The notes below the pieces were generated by a model, which saw only the letters and a list, made by a program, of their open reading frames with translations, was not told the origin of the DNA and did no database searches. Below, in pieces: positions 2,861 to 64,000 of a stretch of 64,000 nt of DNA. Position 1 is the first letter of the stretch. Every line of letters starts with the position of its first letter. Made by a program: the position numbers and the translations under genes. The stretch is taken from positions 1 to 64,000 of the forward strand of contig KZ538276.1 of NCBI GenBank assembly GCA_000934665.2. The letters are read 5' to 3'. The DNA comes from Catajapyx aquilonaris (lineage: Eukaryota).

Positions 2861-4161
2861 CTTAGGAGAATAGGTCTCGCGATACGAAAGCTTAGCCCAA
2901 ACTCAAACCAATCCTATATTATTATTCTAGTGATAGAACCTCACCTGAAAAAGACATCATTAAGAGGTGCGGGCTTTTTTGAGCGGTCCCAGTGCCCCCT
3001 ACCGCCTTTTAATAACACAAAAGGCAGCTTTAATTACGGTAGTGAGAGCCTGGAAATGCAGTGCTGAGCGAACCTTTATCCGAGGCTTTTGGTATATAGT
3101 GGGGTGGTGGTGGAAGGAGGAGAGGAGGGGGTAGGCTGCGTGCTCGCATTTGATTGGCTCGTAAATCATCTCCGTGGTAGACTGGTCTAAGGAATTTAAT
3201 ATGTGTATCGATATGAAAATAGCTGGCGGCCCAAGGGTACTTGCAAGGTGCCCTGTAAAGTATCCCAGCTTCCGTTTAATCCCGACTGCGAGATGTTTTA
3301 TTACCTTACCCGCCCATGTTTATTACGCTCTCCGCCCAGATACCAATTTTGAAGCAGGCGTTCTGATATTAGCATTTTTTGGGGGGAGGGAGGACCAGAA
3401 GAGGGAGAGATCAAACGGGGAGGAAAGAGGGGAAGGAATGGACTTGGGGAGTATGATTATTGCTTGGTATTATTTTTACCTGCTTTTGTTACGCTCAGCT
3501 TGTAATAATGTAATCTCCTGGGAGATGTGGTGGAACGTCATTTCAGATGAAGGGTGGAAACAAGGTAGTGGTCATTTGGACCAAAGATGGCGGCTCCCAT
3601 GGGGAGTATCCACACTCCATCGTATTTCAATCGGAAATATTAGTCTCAAGAGTTCCTCTGTTGGATGGAAGTTCACATTCAATACAGTATAATAGAGCAC
3701 AATATTTCATAGAACGTCAGTAGACTACATGAGCTTCATTGTTGTACACGATTTTGGAAATAGTACCCTAATGTTAAGAAATCCAATATTCATAATATAT
3801 TAGCTTAAATATTTCAAACTATTAGCTTAAATAGTAATAACAATTTTAAATGGTATTTAAATTGTGTTTATAGGTACATAACTATATTATTTTAGTTACA
3901 GTATTATATCATTAGCAATGATTTATTATGCGATATGATATCATTAGCAATGATTTTTATGCGATATATCATTAGCAATATATTATCTATTACATTATTA
4001 TATTATTATATTAAGTTATTATCTATCACATTCTTATAGTATATTAGTCGGCCTATAATGTAATATTGATACAAAATTATTTTTGTTAATAATACGGTAA
4101 TTATCAATAGTAACATTTGATTTCTTATTATTTTAATTCCACATCATTTGTTATTTTACGG

Positions 4162-4162
<1 letters not shown>

Positions 4163-4239
<77 letters not shown>

Positions 4240-6111: not shown

Positions 6112-6229
6112 CGCTTGTTATTATCTTTTGGATACAAGACGTTTCAATCTGGCTCATGTGAATGTACCATTTACTTCAAACATCCAGTACCATATAAAGC
6201 CCATATCCGAGGATTAAGAGAATATAAAA

Positions 6230-6710
6230 GATCTTGCACTTCCTGACGTCGTAGAGGGTCGGACGATGAGCCATCTTCCGGCCCTCTACGACGTCAGGAA
6301 GTGTGAGATCTTTTGGAAAAAATTGCAAATTTTCCAGCCGTTTTCGAGCTATGGCCAAATTAAGATTTCGCACATTCTCATCTTGGCCCGCTCTACGTCT
6401 ACCAGACCAGTGCCATCATCGCCTCAGCCACGCACTCGCTCCCACCCAACTCCCGTCCGCCACCTCTCCACCAATCCGCTTCGGGCGGCGCCACTCTCGG
6501 CCACCCCGCCAACTGGGGTTGAGACAAAGGAACAAAGAAATAAGCCATTGGAGATGGTTCTGGAAGTGCGAGCCGCCAAGCGCCGAAGGCGCGCCAATGG
6601 GGCGAAGCCCCGCCGCCGAGCGCAGCGATTCAAGTATATATAAAGCTTCTCTCCGAGGATATAGGAGGAGGCTGGAAAAGATTTCGCACTTCCCGAGGTC
6701 GTAGAGCGCT
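6230..6710. mobile_element. TIR-bounded non-autonomous element (~6285-6710) with an inverted duplication of its left end (hairpin 6230-6310)
   Basis: ctctacgacgtcaggaagtgtgagatctttt pairs both with aaaagatttcgcacttcccgaggtcgtagag (~6677-6706) and with gatcttgcacttcctgacgtcgtagag (6230-6256). Confidence 0.6.
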
Positions 6711-8074: not shown

Positions 8075-8212
8075 ATCCTGATACTTAAGGGTAACCCTCA
8101 TGCCTCTCTTGTGATGCAGGACGCCTACAATCCAGGATGAAAAGTTCAGCCTGGATTGTAGGCTTCCCGCATCACAGGAGAGGCATGAGGGGTTGTCCTG
8201 AAGTGTCAGGAT
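8075..8212. repeat. ~138-bp near-perfect palindrome (fold-back, MITE-like)
   Basis: atcctgatact...cctcatgcctctcttgtgatgc...cctacaatccagg-atgaaaagttcag-cctggattgtagg...gcatcacaggagaggcatgagg...agtgtcaggat. Confidence 0.85.
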
Positions 8213-10379: not shown

Positions 10380-10945
10380 TAGTTAGGTTCGGTTAGGGTA
10401 TAGGGTAAAGATTAGGTAACGTAAGGTAAGTTTAGGTAGGGTTAGGTCGGATTGTGTTAGGTGAAATAGGATTAGGTACCGTAAGGTAAGGTGAAGGTAA
10501 GGTACCTTAGGTGATAATATATTAGGAAGGGTTAGGATAGGATAGGATAGAATAGGTTAGGTAACGTAAGGTTAGGTAAGGTAGGGCTATGTCGGCCTAG
10601 GTTAAGTTAGGTTAGGTGAGAGTAGATTAAGTTAGGCTAGGCTAGGGTAGGTGAAATTATATTAGGTAACGTAAGGTAAAGTAAGGTTGGGTTAGGTTGG
10701 GTTAGGTTGGGTTAGGTTGGGTTAGGTTAGGTTAGGATAGGTTAGTAGGGTTAGCTTAGGTTAGGATAGGTTCAGTGAGAGCAGATTAAGGTAGGTAAGG
10801 TTACGACTTACGTGACAGTAGATTAAGGCAAGTTAGGTTAGGTTAGGTTAGGTTAGGTTAGGTTAGGTAGGTAAGGTTATGTGACAGTAGATTAAGGAAG
10901 GTAAGGTTAGGCAAGTTGGTAACGTAAGGTTAGGTTAGGTTAGCT
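10380..10945 (+). repeat. Degenerate interstitial (TTAGG)n array
   Basis: Runs of ggtta/ggttg/ggtaa/ggata pentamers. TTAGG is the common arthropod telomeric repeat. Confidence 0.85.
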
Positions 10946-13721: not shown

Positions 13722-13892
13722 GGTGACGCTGGGTGTGGACTTGGGGAGGGCTCTTTTGTACCGGAAGTCGGGAGACGACCTGGCTTCGGGCCGGTCTAAT
13801 AAATGGGTAGCTCCAAACCTGTTGTATTATTGGACCCCGACCCTAAGTGATCTTGCGGGATCAGGAGGGATGACCTGAGATCAACCCTCACA
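13722..13892 (+). mobile_element. Possible short solo LTR
   Basis: gtat|GGTGACG...AATAAA (13798)...CCTCACA|gtat: 4-bp TSD and an ACA end, but the 5' end reads GG rather than canonical TG. Confidence 0.3.
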
Positions 13893-15445: not shown

Positions 15446-15513
15446 AGTTCGGGGGTCACTTCTTGATAACTAATATTGCCTGATAGCAGTTATCAAGTAG
15501 TGACCCCCGAACT
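15446..15513. repeat. Hairpin, 26-bp arms
   Basis: agttcgggggtcacttcttgataact / agttatcaagtagtgacccccgaact. Confidence 0.85.
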
Positions 15514-15517
15514 AGTA

Positions 15518-15718
15518 GATATAGTAGACCAGAGTCCCACGCCAGATGATCCCTGACGTTATTTTAACGGTCTTTACGTCAATTTCACTTCAATCTATCG
15601 TATCAATGGTGCAATAGCCGTTACATTTCTTCACGTAAAATTGACGCTAAAAGTCGTTAAATTGACGTAGCCTAAAAGTCGTTAAAATATCTGGCGTGGG
15701 ACTCTGGTCTACTATATC
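15518..15718. mobile_element. MITE with 30-bp perfect TIRs
   Basis: gatatagtagaccagagtcccacgccagat ... atctggcgtgggactctggtctactatatc, with subterminal aattgacg repeats. Superfamily not assigned. Confidence 0.8.
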
Positions 15719-20839: not shown

Positions 20840-21008
20840 AGGCCCATTCACACAGGCCGTCGACGGTTTTGGTTTTGGTTTTGGACCAATCAGAGCGGGC
20901 CCTCACGGTAACCATGACGCATTGTTTACGTGAGGGCCCGTTCTGATTGGTCCGCGGCGTCGACGAGACCAAAAACCAAAACCGTCGACGGCCTGTGTGA
21001 ATGGGCCT
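20840..21008. mobile_element. PIF/Harbinger-type MITE
   Basis: TAA|AGGCCCATTCACACAGGCCGTCGACGGTTTTGG ... CCAAAACCGTCGACGGCCTGTGTGAATGGGCCT|TAA; 3-bp TSD. Confidence 0.92.
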
Positions 21009-32141: not shown

Positions 32142-32630
32142 TATAGTATGACCAGTGACGTAGCCAGGATTCCAGTTCGGGGGAGGGCGCAATCGGGAGG
32201 GGTATAAACCGATAAGTGCGGGAAGGAGGCCCGCCGCATGCGAAATTTTTTGGGGCTCAAGGTCACACGAGCTTAGGTGAATGTGGGAGATTTGATTGCG
32301 TGTGTATTTGATGAAATTGGTAGCACTTTTCCCCTCAAAAATCATAAATTAGTAATTTGAAAACATGATTTTTTTAAAAATAAATCCACAAGAGTTCCCC
32401 CCCCCCCCGGCTACGTCACTGAGTATGACCATTTTCAGAAAGGGACGTGATGTATGATGACGTTTCATAGAAACACCAATCAGAGGCGAAAGAAATGGGC
32501 TACTTGAAGCTCATTGGGTAGCTATAAGTGTCCCATGTCTAAAATTGGTCAAACTATAGTTATATAACTATAGTTTGACCATTTTTAGAAAGGGGACACT
32601 TAGCCACCCAATGAGCTTCAAGTAGCCTAT
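32142..32630. mobile_element. Host MITE (TIR tatagt.tgacca.ttt.aga...gggac; ~32142-32559), interrupted by the hAT MITE and followed by an inverted duplication of its right end
   Basis: Palindrome 32495-32630 centred on actatagttatataactatagt; the left TIR is split by the hAT insertion. Confidence 0.65.
32153..32421. mobile_element. hAT-type MITE
   Basis: 8-bp TSD agtatgac (32145-32152 and 32422-32429); TIR CAGTGACGTAGCC / GGCTACGTCACTG. Confidence 0.92.
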
Positions 32631-42133: not shown

Positions 42134-42578
42134 CAGGGAGCATATACTACATAAGAGGCGCAAACATTCGATTTTTTTCGTCTCTCTGTTTATCGCGTTG
42201 CCAAGGCTGGCGGCCATCTTGAAGTGTGTGGTATGTCAAAGAGGTATAAATAGGGTACAGGCAGGCAGTCAAGGTCCGCGGGAGTCCGCCATCTTTGATA
42301 GTTTTGGCTGCCATGGAAATACACGGCAATAACAATTTACTTACCCATTTTCCAATATCGAATTCAAATTCGCGCGCGTTCTTGCAGTGTAGTTGCCATG
42401 GCAGCCAAAACCATCAAAGATGGCGGACCTTATTTTTGCCTGTACCCTATTTATACCTCGTTGGTATCCCACACACGTCAAGATGGCCGCCGGCCTTGGC
42501 AACACCCTATAAACAGAGAGACGTGAACAACAATGGCCCGACAGAAGTTTGCGCCTCTTATGTAGTATATGCTCCCTG
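42134..42578. mobile_element. P-like MITE (family P1), both ends intact
   Basis: 7-bp TSD tctataa (42127-42133 and 42579-42585); TIR CAGGGAGCATATACTACATAAGAGGCGCAAAC / GTTTGCGCCTCTTATGTAGTATATGCTCCCTG; long palindromic arms. Confidence 0.9.
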
Positions 42579-50489: not shown

Positions 50490-51280
50490 GTTTCCATATG
50501 CCAGAAATCACTCCGAATCACCACATTCTATGGTGAAGTGGTCTTTCTGTAGGCTAGAAATCACTTCAGATCACCACCTCCTGATAGTGACACTGTCTTT
50601 CCCTGTGCCAGTCTGCAAGACCATAGAATGTGGTGATCTGGAGTGATTTCTGGCATATGGAAAGAATATGCTGAGAAATCACTCCAGATCACCACCTTCT
50701 GATAGTGAAGCGGTATTTTAATAGACCAGAAATCACTCCAGATCACCACCTTCTGATAGTGAAGCGGTATTTTAATAGGTCAGAAATCACTCCAGATCAC
50801 ACAGTCTTGCGCTCAATAAGCTATGGGGACGTTGAAAACTCCCCTTTTCGAAGCTAGTGTAAACTAACCTAACCTGACCTGACCTAACCTAACCTAACCT
50901 AACCTAACCTGACCTAACCTAACCTGACCTAACCTGCCCTACCCTAACTAGCCTAGGCTGAGAAAAATGGACTTTTGTGAAACCCTGCAAATGGAAATTG
51001 TGGGGACATGTCCCCACTATAACGGTAACGTTCTGGTGTGTGAAGATATGGGGACCCAAAAGTCCCCACAAGAGAAATTGTGAGGACAGTAGTCCCCACA
51101 GTTACAGTAAAAACACATACTTCCGGTCACACAGCAGCTTATTGAAGACAAGAACAACATATCTTGAAAGTGAAGCGGTCTTTCCCTGTGCCAGAAATCA
51201 CTTCAGATCACCACATTCTGATAGTCAATCTGTCTTTTTCCCTATGGCAAAAATCACACGGATGACCACGTTCTAAGTAT
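50490..51280. repeat. ~55-bp satellite (aatcactccagatcaccaccttctgatagtgaagcggt...) with one inverted unit and an inserted element
   Basis: Direct repeats; tttccatatgccagaaatcactcc (~50492) pairs with ggagtgatttctggcatatggaaa (50640). Confidence 0.8.
50800..51120. mobile_element. Non-autonomous element with internal (CCTAA)n and tggggac/gtccccac subterminal repeats
   Basis: (aacct)n at 50865-50950; tggggac three times and gtccccac three times in opposing orientation; it interrupts the satellite. Confidence 0.5.
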
Positions 51281-55890: not shown

Positions 55891-56982
55891 CAACCATTCG
55901 ATGTTATCGCTCAGGGGGGAAAAAACGACACTTTGTCTCAAACTCGCAGGGGCAGAACAGGCTCTAAATAGTTTACTAGTGGCTTTTTCTTCCTTCGTAA
56001 ATAAATGATTGCGAGTTTTCTGAGGCTACAGAAAGAGAGAGAACCGGGTCCTGTAATAAAACCCCATCCATCTCGGTTTACTCGGTTCGATCAACTTTAA
56101 CGCTTGTATACAGCAGGATTAAGAATGAATAAAAAAATAGGATGGGGTTACGGGCCACCCTCTAGGGCCAAGAGAGGTTGTAAATTATTCAGGGCGTAAT
56201 CAGAGCTAAAATCCGTTACGAGAGGAGGGGTTTCCAGGAGATGGGCGAATAGGGCTCGTTGCAGTGGTCATTTAGGGGCCAAAAGAGGAGATTGCCCTTT
56301 CCTTGCAAGACCACACAGCGTCCGCAAACAGCAGGGGAAAAAAACCCGGTTTTTGTATTCAGGACAGGAGTGCTTGTCAGGTGTATGAAACCGGTATGAA
56401 TCATAAATAGAGTTTTACATAAGTTAACTGTCTTAGTACATAACAGTCAAAATTGTTTGAAAGACAGCAACAAAATCATGTCGACAATGGGAAGGTTTGC
56501 TAGACACTGCGGCCCCCGTAACGGTCATGTAACTGGGCTCCAATTAGGCCGGACTAACCAGTCCAAATGCAGCATAAACAAAGGGAAATGGCAACACTAT
56601 TGCGCAAAATGTTGGGGAAAATTGCGACAATTCGTTAGCCAATAAGGTTATGCAAACATTTGATATTGCCCCAGCAGGCCGGACAGGCTAGCAGCGTTCG
56701 TCGGAAAGTGAGCTGAAGTTGCTATTTTTTAACAAATCAAACAAGTCGCTGCTTGTGAAATATAACGGATTTAAATATGACGCATCCTCAATGGTACATA
56801 TAAAATTGTATCGATGTATCACACCTTTCTTTTTTACATGTCCTATGGTCGTAAATTAAACACATTTGTCGACTCCGCTGAGGCGTGATTGCCCTCCTCA
56901 GATGGGAATATGGCTCTGCTGCTAGATAGCTATTGATACTTCTAGAGCATGCAGGTCATACATGAAGATAAAATGAGATTAC

Positions 56983-57327
56983 CGTAACGGGCTGGTATGA
57001 CGTCGGGATCTCCTCGGTCCTCCAGCTCCAGAGCTGTTGCGGTTCCGCACGTGGCCGCGCCTCCAGACGCGGATCCATTCCCCTTGACCAAAGGGTAGGA
57101 CAGGACACAGTGTTGCTCGTAGGACACGTCCCTCAAATGAAACTTCTTCTTCTTCTCGTCTCCAGCACCAGCCTGGAAGAAGTCGCAGGCGCCATCTCCG
57201 CTTCGCCTGCGGTCTCGGCTGCGGTTCCGCACGGTCAGGACCACCAAAAGCACCACTGACACCATGGCAACGCCGCAGCCGATCAAAACCGCCAGCAAAG
57301 ATTGGAAGCCCAACCCGGATTCGGATG
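56983..57327 (-). CDS. Sidestep-like exon with transmembrane helix and juxtamembrane tail (ASESGLGFQSLLAVLIGCGVAMVSVVLLVVLTVRNRSRDRRR...EDRGDPDVIPARY)
   Basis: Acceptor ttcctgccattacag|, phase 1 matching the previous exon. Hydrophobic stretch followed by a basic stop-transfer cluster and a DPDVIP motif; donor G|gtaatc. Confidence 0.92.
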
Positions 57328-58704
57328 CTGTAATGGCAGGAAATTGAAACGGTGGGGAGGGGGGAGTTTTTTTTTTGCGGGGGAAGGAGGAGATAGTGTG
57401 GCTTCCGATGGCGGTTAAATTTCACAAAAAAAAATATGCTCCGATTGTTGCTAATGGCAGACGCGCATTAAACAGGGAGCAAATATGTCGAATCATTTGA
57501 CTAAGAGATAATTGCCTTTAACACTCATCGATATTCTACTAAATGCAAAATCGTCCGCCAGGATCGCCACACAATTGAGCAGCGCCGAACGGGTGAGGCT
57601 TACTGGCCACCTCAGATAAGGCTGCGGTAGGATCTTAGATCGATCATAGCTCGAAAACTAATACGTATTTCTTCAAACAAAAAGAACACCAAACGATATT
57701 TTACATGGGTTTTCAGGATAGGACCCTATTTATTACATAAACTCTATCATAAAGCACCAGTTTCTAACGTTATCTCTTCTTTAAATTTTTCCCTCCCTTT
57801 TTCCCTAAAGATTCTCAGCAACTGCAATACGGGTGAGATGAAGATCCGCTAAATCCTAGATAAGAGAAGCCGAGAGGATGTGGCGAGATAGGTCGTCTTG
57901 AGAGAAAACCTAGATGGGGGAAGATGGGTAGGGTAGGGTGTGTGGAGGGGGGGAGGGGGGTAGAGTGTGCCATCATCCATCATCTAGCATAATTTCCATC
58001 CCATGAAAGTCAACTAGAGTCTGAAGTAGGCTGGACTAGACTGTCTCCTCCCTTCGGTATGGATGGCATGAGACCCATTTTCCTCCTCCTTCTCCTTATA
58101 TATTTTTTTTCTGCCTCCATCTTCTTATTCTGGAACCATCTCTTCTCCCTACCTAGACCCCCTTCGTATGAAATTTTTGCCACTCATGACTGACTTTGAC
58201 AGGTAATTTTGTCACTTTTCATGGATTTTTTCTCTCTCTTCAATTCCATATTTTTTTTGGAGAAGGAAAGGACAGGCTTTGCCTCAAGCTCTAAACCTTT
58301 CATTTCACAGTCAAGAGTCGATCTACTCCTTTTATGCAAACACAATATAGCAAATCTTTCTCTATGTGGCTGCCGAAGCACCCGAGGAAGCTTGAATATA
58401 ACCACTAGAAAAACCTGGATCCGAATATAGATGTATGGAATCTCTCTAAAAATATTTTTGGACCGAATATCATCAACATATGTTCCACAGTATTCTCTGG
58501 ATATTCGCTCGTAAGTGTGGATGTTCGGAATAATACTGTGCTCATAGTTTAAAAAACCGTGGTTTTGATTTGAGGTTAGATTTGGTAAGGTAAATGCTTT
58601 CAATTTCACGCATGCTTCGACTTCACCAACCGAGTCGTGATGGCCACCTCAGCATAGCCCATGGTCTTAGAATACTAAGGTCTGGACACTCCCTCTTATC
58701 GCCT

Positions 58705-59076
58705 CTCACCTGAGAGCGCCATGAGACCTTTCACGGTGCTATTATGTGGCGACCCTATCGGACTACGCTGAACTTTATAGGTATACACTACAAAAGGGAA
58801 GCGCTACATTGGGGGACCCAACATGGTCGCCGGTGGCCATGTTGGGCCCGCATGTAGCGTTTCCCTTTTGTACCTATCCTCCTGAGACCCCTAGTACAGC
58901 TTTCAATCACCTTTGTTTTTGTTTTTTTACGCGTTTGAGTTAGTCAGAAAGTGCTGGAAAAAACAAAGGTACAGTATACTGTACCAGGGGTCTCAGGAGG
59001 CTATAAAGTTCAGCGTAGTCCGGTAGGGTCGCCACATAATACAGCAGTGAAAGGTCTCATGGCGCTCTCAGGTGAG
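58705..59076. mobile_element. Fold-back element containing a nested family T1 MITE
   Basis: ctcacctgagagcgccatgagacctttcac...aactttataggta pairs with tacc|TA..TA|taaagtt...gtgaaaggtctcatggcgctctcaggtgag; central hairpin at ~58789-58872. Confidence 0.85.
58877..59001. mobile_element. Family T1 MITE nested at a TA site
   Basis: Colinear with 24488-24613; the empty site can be read from the opposite palindrome arm, confirming a TA duplication. Confidence 0.88.
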
Positions 59077-61229
59077 CACCTCATGGAAAACGCCTCGGCA
59101 GGCGATAAGATAAGATTGTAGGGGAAGTGTCCGGGGGCTGGCCTAGCCTAACCCTATTTTGGGCGCCATTATCACCAACCCTCCTGTTCTCATAATAAAA
59201 ATTGTGGGTATGATTTGAGGTTGGATTGGGTAAGGTAAATCATCTACGGCCTTCAATTCCACGCATGAGTCGACTCCGCTAACCGAGGCGTAATGGCCAC
59301 CTCAGCATAACCTAACCCTATTTTTGGGCGTCATCATCACCAACCCCATTCCATTCACGTATCAATAGTGAAACATGGCTTGAAAACTCTTTTTGGAGAA
59401 AATCCGCTACAAAATTGATTTCTTGGTGAGCTAGACTTGGTGGTGGGAGGAGAAGCGGGGAGGGGAAAAAAAAAGCCGAAGCATGTAATCATCGAAGGAA
59501 AAAATCTTCTTCCGCTTGAAGTAAAGACAGAAGGCGGAATTGTAGGGAGCTTTACATCGGAATATCCGCTTCCTCACAGGAATGATGACCTCAAATTAGC
59601 ATCGATTAAGGGAACCATGTCTTTACCCGTTCACAAAAAAAAATCCAATTTTCCAATACTTATATGAAAAAATCGAAAATTGCATGTGTTTGCACATTAG
59701 AGTGCGAAAAAATGACACCTAATTTATATGGTAATTAATATATTTGCAACAACAGCTAAAAATCAAAGTTAGTCTTTTGTAGTCCCCCGGAATTCATAAT
59801 TAGCTGTTATTACCCCCCCTACAGCCGCTATTATTCCCATGAATAATTTCGATGTGCGCGCTTTATTTTAGCAATACAAATTTTGCGAAAACCCTATCAA
59901 AATTTATTAATCCCCTCTAGCCCGCAGATAAAAAAATATTGTGACCACTGAACACACAATTTTTTTTAAAAAACTGATTTTACAAAAAAAGAAAATTGCT
60001 GGCCCTAAAGGCACATCAAATTACCAGCTTTAGTAGAACTGATCGGAAAAATAGCTTTAAGTGATAGCTCCTCACGTGGATAACGTACGATAATATTTAC
60101 AGAGCGCGATAATACTCAGCAAACATCATTAGCTGCAAGAACTTTAGCTGCAGATGTATCGATTATTAGTTTTTTTTTCTGTGTCCAACCTAGCCAGTAA
60201 GATAGTGAAAAACAGTTATAACCTCATTTTTGGCCAACTTTTTTTTTCTTGTTTTTCGGGGAATTCCCTAAGCGTCTTTGGCATTAATCCAGACCTACAG
60301 AGTGCCCAATTCAGATTAAGACGTCAAACCCACAGCTTCACGTTTAAGTAGATTTCACTTAGAGTCTAAATGGTTTTTATTTTTTCGGTGGACATTAATC
60401 ACCCTGGTTCTAGACTCGAGAGCCCGGTTTTTGAAAGGTATAATCCCTCCAGATAAAAGGTAATGTCGCTTCCAGCTATTGACTTGGTTCTGGCACATTG
60501 TTGTAAAGCTTTAAAATAATTAGATTTCGTATGCAATGTAGAGGCTATAATTACCAAAAAGTGTGATGAGCTCTAATATTATTTTCGACAACTATTAGCC
60601 TATAGCTAATATCCACATAACTGATTATAACTATGAAGTTTATGACACAAAATTTTTTCACACACACAGAAAAAATTCCTGGCGGTGTTCTCCTAAAAAT
60701 TGAGCCATTGTTGGCTCCTAGTGTGTTAGAGAGTTGGGGTTGGGGGGGGGGGNNNNNNNNNNNNNNNNNNNNNNNNNNNNAGAATTTCGGATGGGGGAGT
60801 CCAAAATGAAGTGGCTTGGACCGATGACGCAATAAATTCCCTGGCTCTCTCTCGGAGGGCTATGGAAATGGGAGGAAAAGTGGGCTAGGAGGCTTTTGCA
60901 AATGTCCCCGGGCGGAAGAGACAAATCGACATGGCGGCTTTCCAAACTATTTGGGGCGGAAGTGGAAATGCGGATGGATGGCAGGTATTTTTTTTCCCCT
61001 CTCTCTCTCTTTCTCTCCAGTGAGGGGGAGAAGAGAAAGCAAAAATTCTACAAATTTTGAAAAATAGGGGTGGACAACCCTGAAGCTGAAACTAGTTTAT
61101 ATAAACGACCCCCAGGTCGTATTTGGGTGCGAAGAAATATATCACCAACTTACCAAGCTCAAACTGTATTGGATCGCCAAAAAAAAAAATCAATTCAAAT
61201 CAAAAAGCAAAAAAACTGTTGGTCCTAGC

Positions 61230-62100
61230 TCTTCGTCCAAAAATGCAAAAAACGACTAGTTTGACAAATATTTTTGTACAATTTTTGTGTTATGTGATCA
61301 CTCTTATGATGTTCCTGGTCCTCTAAAAACATTTCGTCCCATGAAATTTTGTCCGAAGAACCAAAAATTTCGTCCAAATATTTCGTTCAAAGAGGCATAA
61401 ATGACCAGCTCGTTTGACAAATATTTTTTGTCAAAAATGTTTGTCACTCTTTTGGGGTACCTTGTTCTCTAAAAACATTTCGCCCCAATGAAATTTCCTT
61501 CCGAAAAAACACTTTTCGTCTGAAAAAATTTCGTCCAAAGATACAGAAACTATCAGTATGTTTGACAATTTTTTTTTGTCAAATTTTGTGTGTGATGTAA
61601 TCACGCTTTTGGGGTTGCTGGTCCACGAAATACGATTTCGCCCCATGAAATTTCGTCCAAAGATGCATAAACGATCATTATGTTTGACAAAAATATTGCT
61701 GTCAAATTTTTGCGCTAGGTAATCACTCATTTGGAGTTCGTAGTGCCGCACTAGGAACTCCAAATGAGTGATTACCTAACGCAAAAATTTGCCACGAAAT
61801 TTTAATGGGGGACATTTTTAGTGCGGCACTAAAAATGTCCCCATTAAAATTTCGTCTGAAGAAATATTATCCACAATTTTTTTTTTGTCCAAAGATGCAT
61901 TAACTACAAGTATGTCCAACAAGTTTTTGTGTTATATAATCACCAGTTTGGGGTTCCTGGTCCACTAAAAAAAATCGTCCAAAAAGATATTTCGGCTAGC
62001 CTTTTCGTCCGAAAATGCAGAAACGACCAGGATGTCTGACAAATTTTTGATCAAATTTTTTTGTGCTATGTAATCACTCTTTTGGGATACCTGGTTCCCC
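61230..62100 (+). repeat. Degenerate satellite (tttcgtcc..aga...tgtttgacaa...gtaatcactcttttgggg)
   Basis: Motif recurs about 6 times with variable spacing. Confidence 0.75.
61703..61855. repeat. Two adjacent palindromes (44-bp and 30-bp arms) sharing the centre TAGTGCNGCACTA
   Basis: 61703-61791 (2 mismatches, loop c) and 61794-61855 (one 1-bp indel, loop g). Confidence 0.92.
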
Positions 62101-62332
62101 CCAGAAAATTTAGGTCACCCCCCCCCCCTCTTTTTTGGGGTGTCACAAAAGCAGGGGGTCTTGAATAATCTAACGGACCTGGGGAGTCGCCAAGTTTGCG
62201 CTTCGTAAGTACCTGGTTGAAGCGCCAGTCAATTACAACATGACTGACATTTTCAATTTTGCATGCGAAATTTTAATGAGGCTCCCGCTTCACAATGTGC
62301 GGCCGGAGCTAATTGTGTCTGAAATAATAATA

Positions 62333-63030
62333 CAGGGTGTTTTCTGATGCCGTCGGGGGGAATATTAGCATCGATACCGCACCAAGTCTTGAAGGGGTGG
62401 GATGGAATTGACGAGCGATTTTTTTTTGCGAAAAAGCATGTGCTGAAATTTGCAAAAATTATGTAGTTTTTTATGCCAAGTCTGACAACTTCGCAGTTTT
62501 CAGTATAGTTTAAAAAGTATTTAAAGAAAATCAAATTTGCTAATATTTTTTTTCAGTTCTGAAATATTTCTGTAAAATTTGCATTTCAAATGGCGCCCAA
62601 TCAGCGCTATCTGGCGGATAAATATTTTTGATCATCTGCCAGGACATTATTGTACTATCTAAATTATTACATTTTTACGCATGACTTTTTCAACACTTTT
62701 CTGTTTTCAAGATCATAGTTTAAGGACCAAAATTTTCAAATATTTTACTGTTTTGATGTAGGGTCAGAATGATTTTTTTTCTTGCAAATTTTTTACATTT
62801 AAATGAAAATGGCGCCCAACCAGCACCATCTGGCAGAGAAATATTGTTGGACATCTAACAGAACATTATTAGACTTTCTCAACAATAAGATTTTTCATCA
62901 AAAATTAGACATGTCACGGAGGAGTATTTTTGAGCATCTTCCTGAACATTATTGGACATTCTCAACAATAATATTTTTAAAACAAAAATTACACTATTTT
63001 CTTCAACGAAAGAACCTAGATACCCGTTAA
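62333..63030. mobile_element. Possible Tc1/mariner-derived fragment, one end only
   Basis: TA|CAGGGTG start; internal direct repeat aaatggcgcccaa.cagc.c.atctggc at ~62588 and ~62807; no matching right TIR found. Confidence 0.3.
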
Positions 63031-63348
63031 TCTAGACAGGCAACACGGAGGCTAAAACCAGACTTTACATTGTTAATCACCCAATTGCAGCACGTCATCA
63101 CCACCGAGGGAGTTAGCACTGCAAACCCGATGAAATTCAAGCCATTTTTTTTTTACCCTGATGCTCCAACAAAGCTGGCCTATCCATGACAGCCCTTTTA
63201 GTCTAATCAAAATTTGACAAACTCTCCTAAAAAAAATTAGAACCTGGAGGCTAATAAATATTGCAATATCTTCCATGGAAACGATGACAACATGACACAA
63301 ATTTCCTGCGATTCTCTCTGTGATTTTAAATAAGTGATGCGCTCTTAC

Positions 63349-63503
63349 CCGTCCTTTTCTCTGCATCTTGAAGGATAACATCCTCCAGGACCACAGGTTC
63401 GCTCCTCCCTTTGGCGTTCCTGGAGAAAAGCAGGATCCGGAGCGGTGTTCCGGGCTCCAACTCGCTCACGGAAAACACAGGGACTGAACTAGACACGTTG
63501 TAC
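63349..63503 (-). CDS. Sidestep-like exon, C-terminal half of FN3 domain (YNVSSSVPVFSVSELEPGTPLRILLFSRNAKGRSEPVVLEDVILQDAEKRT)
   Basis: Follows a 91-nt phase-2 intron (63504-63594) with acceptor ttttttttggcacag|; donor G|gtaaga. Contains the FN3 motifs LEPGT and NAKGRSEP. Not in the ORF track (no ATG). Confidence 0.93.
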
Positions 63504-63594
63504 CTGTGCCAAAAAAAAAGTCAAGTGGAAAATTGTAGAACCTATAGTCTATCATATATAGGCATTATTCGAAGAAAAAAAAATCTAATCTTAC

Positions 63595-63736
63595 CTTAAC
63601 TGTCGGGTACGTGTGTCGTACATTTCCATTTCAAATAGCTGTGGCAAACCGCCGTCATAACCGGGCTCGCATTCGATTTCCATCGCATCTGCAGTCAGAT
63701 TGAGCAGAGTGCAGTTCCTCAGTGGAAGAGGACGTT
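63595..63736 (-). CDS. Sidestep-like exon, N-terminal half of FN3 domain (ERPLPLRNCTLLNLTADAMEIECEPGYDGGLPQLFEMEMYDTRTRQLR)
   Basis: Acceptor tattcag| at 63737-63738 and donor AG|gtaaga at 63594. The C...C.PGYDGGLPQ.F motif is typical of Side/nephrin FN3 domains. Confidence 0.93.
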
Positions 63737-64000
63737 CTGAATAAGATGTAACAATCACAACATTATCTATCAAGTTTACATACCAGCACATTTTTGAGCA
63801 TGCTTGTACTTAATATCATGACCTTTTTTTTTTAAAAAAAAAAAGCCGGATTAAGCATAATTTATGGGGGTCAGTGTTTGCTTTTCCAGGCAAATGGCCG
63901 CTACTCAGCAGCTCTATGAGAAGTATAATCATGAAGATAGATCGCGAGCCATAAAATTCATTCCCCAACTCTAACACTGTAGTTTAAAAAATTAATCTCT

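Follow-up and report, generated by a model that had tools for sequence, protein, structure and literature searches.

A double hairpin in a minisatellite of Catajapyx aquilonaris, probably an excision footprint of a DNA transposon with long inverted arms

The DNA analysed here, in the following called the window, is a stretch of 64,000 nucleotides from Catajapyx aquilonaris (contig KZ538276.1, positions 1 to 64,000). Close to its end, a minisatellite contains a block of 153 bases, 61703..61855, in which two hairpins abut in the order X-X'-Z'-Z. Coordinates and letters of this block were verified; the structure together with its complementary loop bases c and g is as the original prediction had described it, and it is present on both haplotypes. 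The following features are relevant to its interpretation:

61225..62100 (limits approximate), plus strand: host, a single-locus degenerate minisatellite of about six units of 120-150 bp
61703..61740, plus strand: X, left flank, original minisatellite sequence and outer part of the left arm
61741..61753, no strand: left hairpin tip, a 13-nt centre with a 6-bp stem and the 1-nt centre c at 61747
61748..61791, minus strand: left P-arm, a 44-nt reverse complement of the left flank with 2 substitutions
61792..61793, no strand: joint between both opened hairpins, a gap of 2 filled by the extra bases cc
61794..61824, minus strand: right P-arm, a 31-nt reverse complement of the right flank with one extra base in a G run
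61819..61831, no strand: right hairpin tip, the same 6-bp stem as in the left tip with the 1-nt centre g at 61825
61832..61855, plus strand: Z, right flank, original minisatellite sequence
56945..57421, minus strand: open frame with a hydrophobic stretch (our reading; no Pfam match), given as context only

Beyond the window, frames encoding Ig domains are found on the minus strand at 65.6, 69.4, 76.0 and 79.4 kb of the contig (sequences L018 and L057, contig 65.6-80.0 kb). They are four of 71 frames scanned out of 98 listed, and two of them reach the Pfam cut-off. Scattered exons of a gene for an Ig-domain membrane protein probably surround the block. As these frames and the frame at 56945-57421 share the same strand, the double hairpin would reside in an intron, probably that of an Ig-family membrane protein gene. 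More long imperfect hairpins occur elsewhere in the window (6226-6314, 8095-8191, 15446-15513, 20883-20953, 32498-32627 and 58789-58872), most of them nested inside small inverted-repeat elements. Flanking repeats are seen around inverted-repeat elements at 42134-42578 (7-bp TCTATAA), 58878-59000 (4-bp CTAT) and 15518-15718 (a palindromic 4-bp repeat), and interstitial telomere-like degenerate arrays, (GGTTA)n and (TAACC)n, are present at 10530-10943 and 50860-50948.

The flanks of the block had been assigned to a local satellite. The tandem units are indeed there, but a genome-wide satellite is rejected: genome searches with the host repeat, using a DNA search that skips very common words, returned only the locus itself and its second haplotype, and the array is thus a single-locus degenerate minisatellite. 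All five other units carry a 10-nt non-palindromic site at the position of the 13-nt centre. The 13-bp palindrome occurs at ten sites in the genome, four of which are both tips on the two haplotypes; none of the remaining six loci has the 13-mer at a hairpin tip, so that the idea of a palindrome cut repeatedly was rejected. Nor do abutting CACTA ends (TAGTG-3 nt-CACTA) explain the tips, because the unit carries CACTA natively at 61939 and the 3-nt spacers form inverted, not direct, copies.

The outer part of the left inverted copy, X' (61754-61791), matches X in 36 of 38 bases with mismatches at 61715/61779 and 61740/61754, whereas comparison with five neighbouring units gives 28-31 matches of 37-38. 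Z' (61794-61818) agrees with its own Z in 24 of 24 positions, apart from a one-base difference in the C/G run, and with the five neighbouring units in 12-20 of 17-25. Since both arms match their own flanks well above the neighbouring units, the insert is a local copy of these flanks, which bears out the earlier proposal that it consists of their reverse complements. The strand of the block folds into two hairpins with -71.7 kcal/mol (z = -17.6), and none of 200 shuffled sequences was equally stable. Rfam yielded no match at gathering score for window 60000-64000, and Pfam none for frames crossing the double hairpin.

In the genome (285.6 Mb) the block has one other match, a 721-bp contig that represents the second haplotype. 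It differs from the window by six substitution rows, several homopolymer indels and the absence of 146 bp (61321-61466), corresponding to one unit; this unit-deletion allele appears as a branch at 61341 in the sequencing runs. The whole double-hairpin block is identical between both haplotypes, an identity that over 187 bases is not statistically significant (P about 0.09). In four of four runs a single contig covers the sequence from 61467 to at least 62103 without any difference, at depths of 27, 34.6, 31.4 and 16.7 compared with 26.1, 22.8, 28.8 and 20.5 for the left flank, which speaks against an assembly artefact. All four runs derive from a single sample, which may also have supplied the assembly, and are represented by contigs rather than raw reads, from which rare variants are dropped. 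Neither a joint skipping the insert was listed in the four runs, nor was an empty or filled allele found in the genome and the runs of this one sample. The assembly contains a gap of Ns at window 60753-60780, about 920 bases upstream, and a contig from runs X3 and X4 bridges it.

Complementary loop bases had been taken as the sign of a 13-bp palindrome cut as a cruciform, and double fold-back synthesis at a break had been expected to give the same product. Neither idea was supported by simulation. The top-strand letter of a loop is set by the side on which its hairpin opens: if a 13-bp palindrome is cut and both hairpins open on the same side, the loops read c/c or g/g, and cruciform ends lead to c/g only when the hairpins open oppositely, one leaving a 3' tail and the other a 5' tail. 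Double 3' fold-back and reciprocal inversion of a tandem duplicate also produce identical loops, c/c or g/g. The pair c/g is obtained by inverted circle integration and also by flank hairpins left by transposon excision when both are opened to 3' tails, in the latter case with a duplication of 2 bp. A cruciform can therefore not be diagnosed from complementary loops: several routes yield c/g and like-sided cruciform opening does not.

A scan for further double hairpins covered 986,330 bases in 114 sequences, some of them overlapping, or about 0.3% of the genome, and its sensitivity is limited as an ungapped version missed the window and L013 cases. Four abutting pairs were returned: the window block and one each in sequences L013, L102 and L084, the last of which was dropped as a tandem repeat with loops of 4 and 0. 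L077 and L094 were rejected as well, consisting of tandem palindromic or AT repeats. Five block-shuffles of the 986-kb sample contained no such pair. The double hairpin at L013:1407-1511 (G000:C6738, about 4071-4175) has perfect arms of 32 and 21 nt, that at L102:2076-2188 (G000:C2861, about 13740-13852) perfect arms of 29 and 28 nt, and in both the 1-nt tips are a and t. The joints of these two exhibit 3-nt microhomology each, while the window joint has two extra bases. The class comprises three cases; 799,452 unselected bases contained no double hairpin and another 38 kb of the contigs with the L013 and L102 scars no further one. L013 was chosen for its 13-mer and L102 as a paralog in the repeat family of L013, so that the sample is not random.

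One of the six other sites of the 13-bp palindrome thus falls within a double hairpin, that of L013, where it occupies the outer end of Z at the point to which the P-arm extends; the paralogs have a near-palindrome there. At both additional sites the tip centres are not shared and the empty paralogs are non-palindromic at the tips, which contradicts the expectation that shared centres accompany such junctions. At the site of the L013 scar, paralog L099 (minus strand, at about 1617) exceeds five others by a few bases, which may be a small footprint left there. In its left flank, L102 departs from its paralogs in short pieces that correspond to the reverse complement of what lies immediately upstream. 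Near the repeat family that harbours the L013 and L102 scars, frames are found on the minus strand at L103:40-372 and L123:5088-5501, which resemble fatty-acid elongase exons. Fully palindromic small elements of two families are present at unrelated loci (L077:4852-5000 and L123:375-507; L058:4056-4167, L083:3544-3650 and L090:4326-4427), with a 1-nt loop in the copies listed. Distinct hairpins scoring at least 18 number 31, including the six double-hairpin tips and some palindromic MITEs; 12 have a 1-nt loop and seven a 0-nt loop.

Ac/Ds elements leave excision footprints in the form of P-nucleotide palindromes, the centre of which is the complement of the base adjoining the element; most are joined by microhomology, and in yeast their arms measure up to 20 nt (PMC5873905). 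When this rule is applied to the window, it reproduces c/g with a 2-bp duplication; by our arithmetic both loop letters would come out right by chance in about 1 in 16 cases. The same geometry with both ends opened to 3' tails is reproduced for three of three scars. Restoring the tip base by the Ac/Ds rule, the flanks end and begin in ATTT in L013 and in ATGT in L102, that is in exact 4-bp duplications, and the chance of a duplication of at least 4 bp under any of four opening modes amounts to 2.3% for each site. The empty site rebuilt in this way has the length of the paralogs in five of six copies for L013, the sixth being longer, and in two of two for L102, and differs from the paralogs by one and two substitutions, respectively; L102 has also gained 5 nt a few bases upstream relative to its paralogs. 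The duplications implied by the rule are thus 2 bp for the window and 4 bp for each of the others, and differ from the 8 bp typical of hAT elements (5-7 bp in subgroups). For the window itself, an 8-bp hAT duplication does not fit, and a 4-bp duplication of the Sola1 type is rejected because it gives TGCA and loops t/a instead of c/g.

On this basis the block is probably an old and probably intronic excision footprint of a DNA transposon with P-arms of 44 and 30 nt. An element duplicating 2 bp would have entered the minisatellite at a palindromic site, and its excision would, to judge by the geometry, have closed each flank into a hairpin ending in a 1-nt tip, in the way that hAT, Mutator and Transib/RAG-type enzymes do. 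A host nuclease may then have nicked both hairpins on their 3' sides at distances of 44 and 30 nt from the tips, resulting in two long 3' tails that could have been joined end to end and filled in. The product is X-X'-Z'-Z, which is present on both haplotypes and has acquired two substitutions and one indel since. That two hairpin-capped ends were opened about 44 and about 30 nt from their tips and rejoined like long P-nucleotides is the part of the original prediction that our results support. Mre11-type nucleases nick near blocked ends at distances that the opening points of 21-44 nt resemble.

Two versions of this excision can be envisaged. If the nick lay 1 nt inside the flank, the duplication would be CG and the target a 12-bp palindrome, which exceeds the site of the neighbouring units by 2 nt. 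With a tip base contributed by an element beginning with C, the duplication would be GC and the 10-bp empty site would have the length seen in the neighbours. Both point to a 2-bp-duplicating element resembling CACTA/EnSpm (TRC), and CG or GC would fit the 2 bp of the TRC type. CACTA elements of the TRC type have CCC at their start and give rise to 2-bp duplications (PMC4298943), and the CACTA-Mirage-Chapaev-Transib (CMCT) clade is characterized by 2-5 bp duplications and motifs common with RAG1 (PMC12730594). For Sola1 a 4-bp target preference AWWT/AWDT is reported (PMC3845634), and ATTT and ATGT conform to it in two of two other scars, a fit that was noticed after the fact and concerns two sites of one repeat family. 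The duplication lengths at the three scars thus match CACTA/EnSpm TRC and Sola1 elements, with the difference that no element is seen at any scar site.

Candidate sources exist in the genome. PF02992, a CACTA-type transposase domain, has six matches over the cut-off among nine candidates, one of them in an open frame of 1002 aa, and for PF05699 (hAT) 150 of 254 candidates were scored and 134 of them matched, a number that is uninformative on this site. At L008:2208-2455 a 248-bp inverted-repeat element with GAG...CTC ends is flanked by a 4-bp AAAT duplication, read in one copy. It is Sola-like by its duplication, and its end motif is presumably a mark of Sola; the element is abundant, with 40 near-full-length matches and 628 candidates in the genome. 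Non-palindromic 4-bp target duplications around inverted-repeat pairs were found in 4 of 297 cases versus 2.0 expected, a non-significant excess, one further survey of target duplications was confounded by palindromic offsets, and another yielded a single family of unclear status. In mainly open-access literature, at the level of main texts, we found no direct report on flank hairpins or donor-site chemistry of CACTA or Sola elements and none on long two-sided footprints.

The excision reading requires additional assumptions. Because the window implies 2 bp and L013 and L102 imply 4 bp, a second element family is needed. The shared centre would simply follow from a palindromic target, and as a perfect palindrome differs from all five neighbouring units, an earlier change at the spot must be postulated; possibly it arose from the imperfect palindrome of the unit by template-switch correction. 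The absence of a clean microhomology at the joint with its two extra bases also speaks against excision; the cc may be either filler or a 1-2 nt microhomology that was later substituted.

A pre-existing 13-bp palindrome would explain the shared centre directly and would suit a joint devoid of microhomology. Two hairpins would have opened in opposite directions, or a nascent strand would have switched template three times by folding back, jumping and folding back again. Opening in the 3'/5' or 5'/3' manner indeed gives c/g, and template switching and snap-back insertions are documented (PMC7954356, PMC2943611). We nevertheless regard this route as rather unlikely. Same-side opening and double 3' snap-back yield identical loops, and a prior gain of 3 nt relative to the five neighbouring units is required. 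Correspondingly, the empty allele foreseen in the original prediction, with its 13-bp palindrome, would be 3 nt longer than the site in any of these five units and is unseen in the runs. Moreover, the loops of L013 and L102 are complementary even though their empty sites contain no palindrome, and the six other loci of the 13-mer do not present it at a hairpin tip. A 6-bp stem makes a poor cruciform.

Short tandem duplications are common in minisatellites, and the unit number of this array varies between haplotypes. The block could accordingly stem from a tandem duplication of X-centre-Z followed by template-switch inversion between the palindromic centres, or from a 78-bp circle that integrated in reverse via the palindrome. 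Inverted circle integration gives c/g, but reciprocal inversion results in c/c or g/g, two events plus a prior 13-bp palindrome are required and the scheme fails for L013 and L102, the empty paralogs of which have no palindrome at the tips. We therefore judge such a history improbable. Even less credit is given to a break independent of transposons, in which a nuclease leaving a short stagger would be followed by filling, sealing into two hairpins and the same kind of repair. The geometry demands only a short duplication and two hairpins, and none of the three sites shows an element; to our knowledge, however, no host nuclease outside the transposase/RAG group has such chemistry, and the 4-bp duplications of L013 and L102 agree with a target preference reported for a transposon (PMC3845634, AWWT/AWDT). 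That the block is a fold-back artefact of assembly or amplification, or else a small mobile element, can practically be dismissed, even though the four runs share one sample and consist of contigs in place of raw reads. The arms hold three differences with a longest perfect run below 31 nt, both haplotype contigs contain the block, and so do spanning contigs of flank-like depth in every run. No further copy exists in the genome, whereas a MITE, which the original prediction had already discounted, would be dispersed in many copies bearing terminal inverted repeats and flanked by target duplications.

Returning to the excision reading, the two-sided, one-base-centred palindromes and the proposed joining of opened flank hairpins have counterparts in the footprints of Ac/Ds (hAT) (PMC5873905, PMC1978519). 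The differences concern the duplication (8 bp there, 2 bp in the window, 4 bp in L013 and L102), the arms (44/30, 32/21 and 29/28 here, against a longest reported arm of 20 nt for budding yeast and of 3 nt for Candida) and the joint, for which microhomology is usual there and two extra bases are present in the window. Hairpins on flanking DNA are shown for hAT, Transib, RAG and Muta1 (PMC5499845), and those of the Mutator-like Muta1, Transib and RAG are likewise opened by host enzymes. The hairpin of Muta1 differs by holding both full strands (43+43 nt), which would result in a tip lacking an odd base, and most of its excisions are precise and its duplications longer (PMC5499845). Short template switches and snap-back SD-MMEJ share with our scars the perfect local inverted copies, and complex insertions may draw on both sides of a break (PMC7954356, PMC2943611). 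By our reasoning, however, one four-point switch creates one hairpin or inversion and not X-X'-Z'-Z, and double snap-back in SD-MMEJ predicts identical loops and needs primer repeats at the tips. TRP/INV rearrangements involve triplications (10.1101/2025.01.14.632981), whereas every base is present twice here.

A single scar of this type is a neutral, probably intronic mutation that implies no function. It looks like a known kind of repair scar with unusually long arms, and its value lies in the class, which serves as a readable fossil: the tips report duplication length and nick position, the arms the point of hairpin opening. Tentatively, we suggest that short-duplication transposons (Sola1-like with 4 bp, AWDT; CACTA/TRC-like with 2 bp) may excise via flank hairpins with 1-nt tips and that the host may often open these hairpins at a distance of 20-45 nt and not at the tip itself. 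The only groups for which we found flank hairpins of this kind in the literature are hAT, Mutator and Transib/RAG. Should the 4-bp and 2-bp readings apply across the whole genome, a cutting mechanism could be assigned to transposon groups for which we found none reported, and a route to hairpins of the size of microRNA precursors would exist besides template switching. If the suggestion is true, each excision could write two new hairpins of 40-90 nt in one step, which would help to explain the richness of this genome in long palindromes with 0-1-nt loops.
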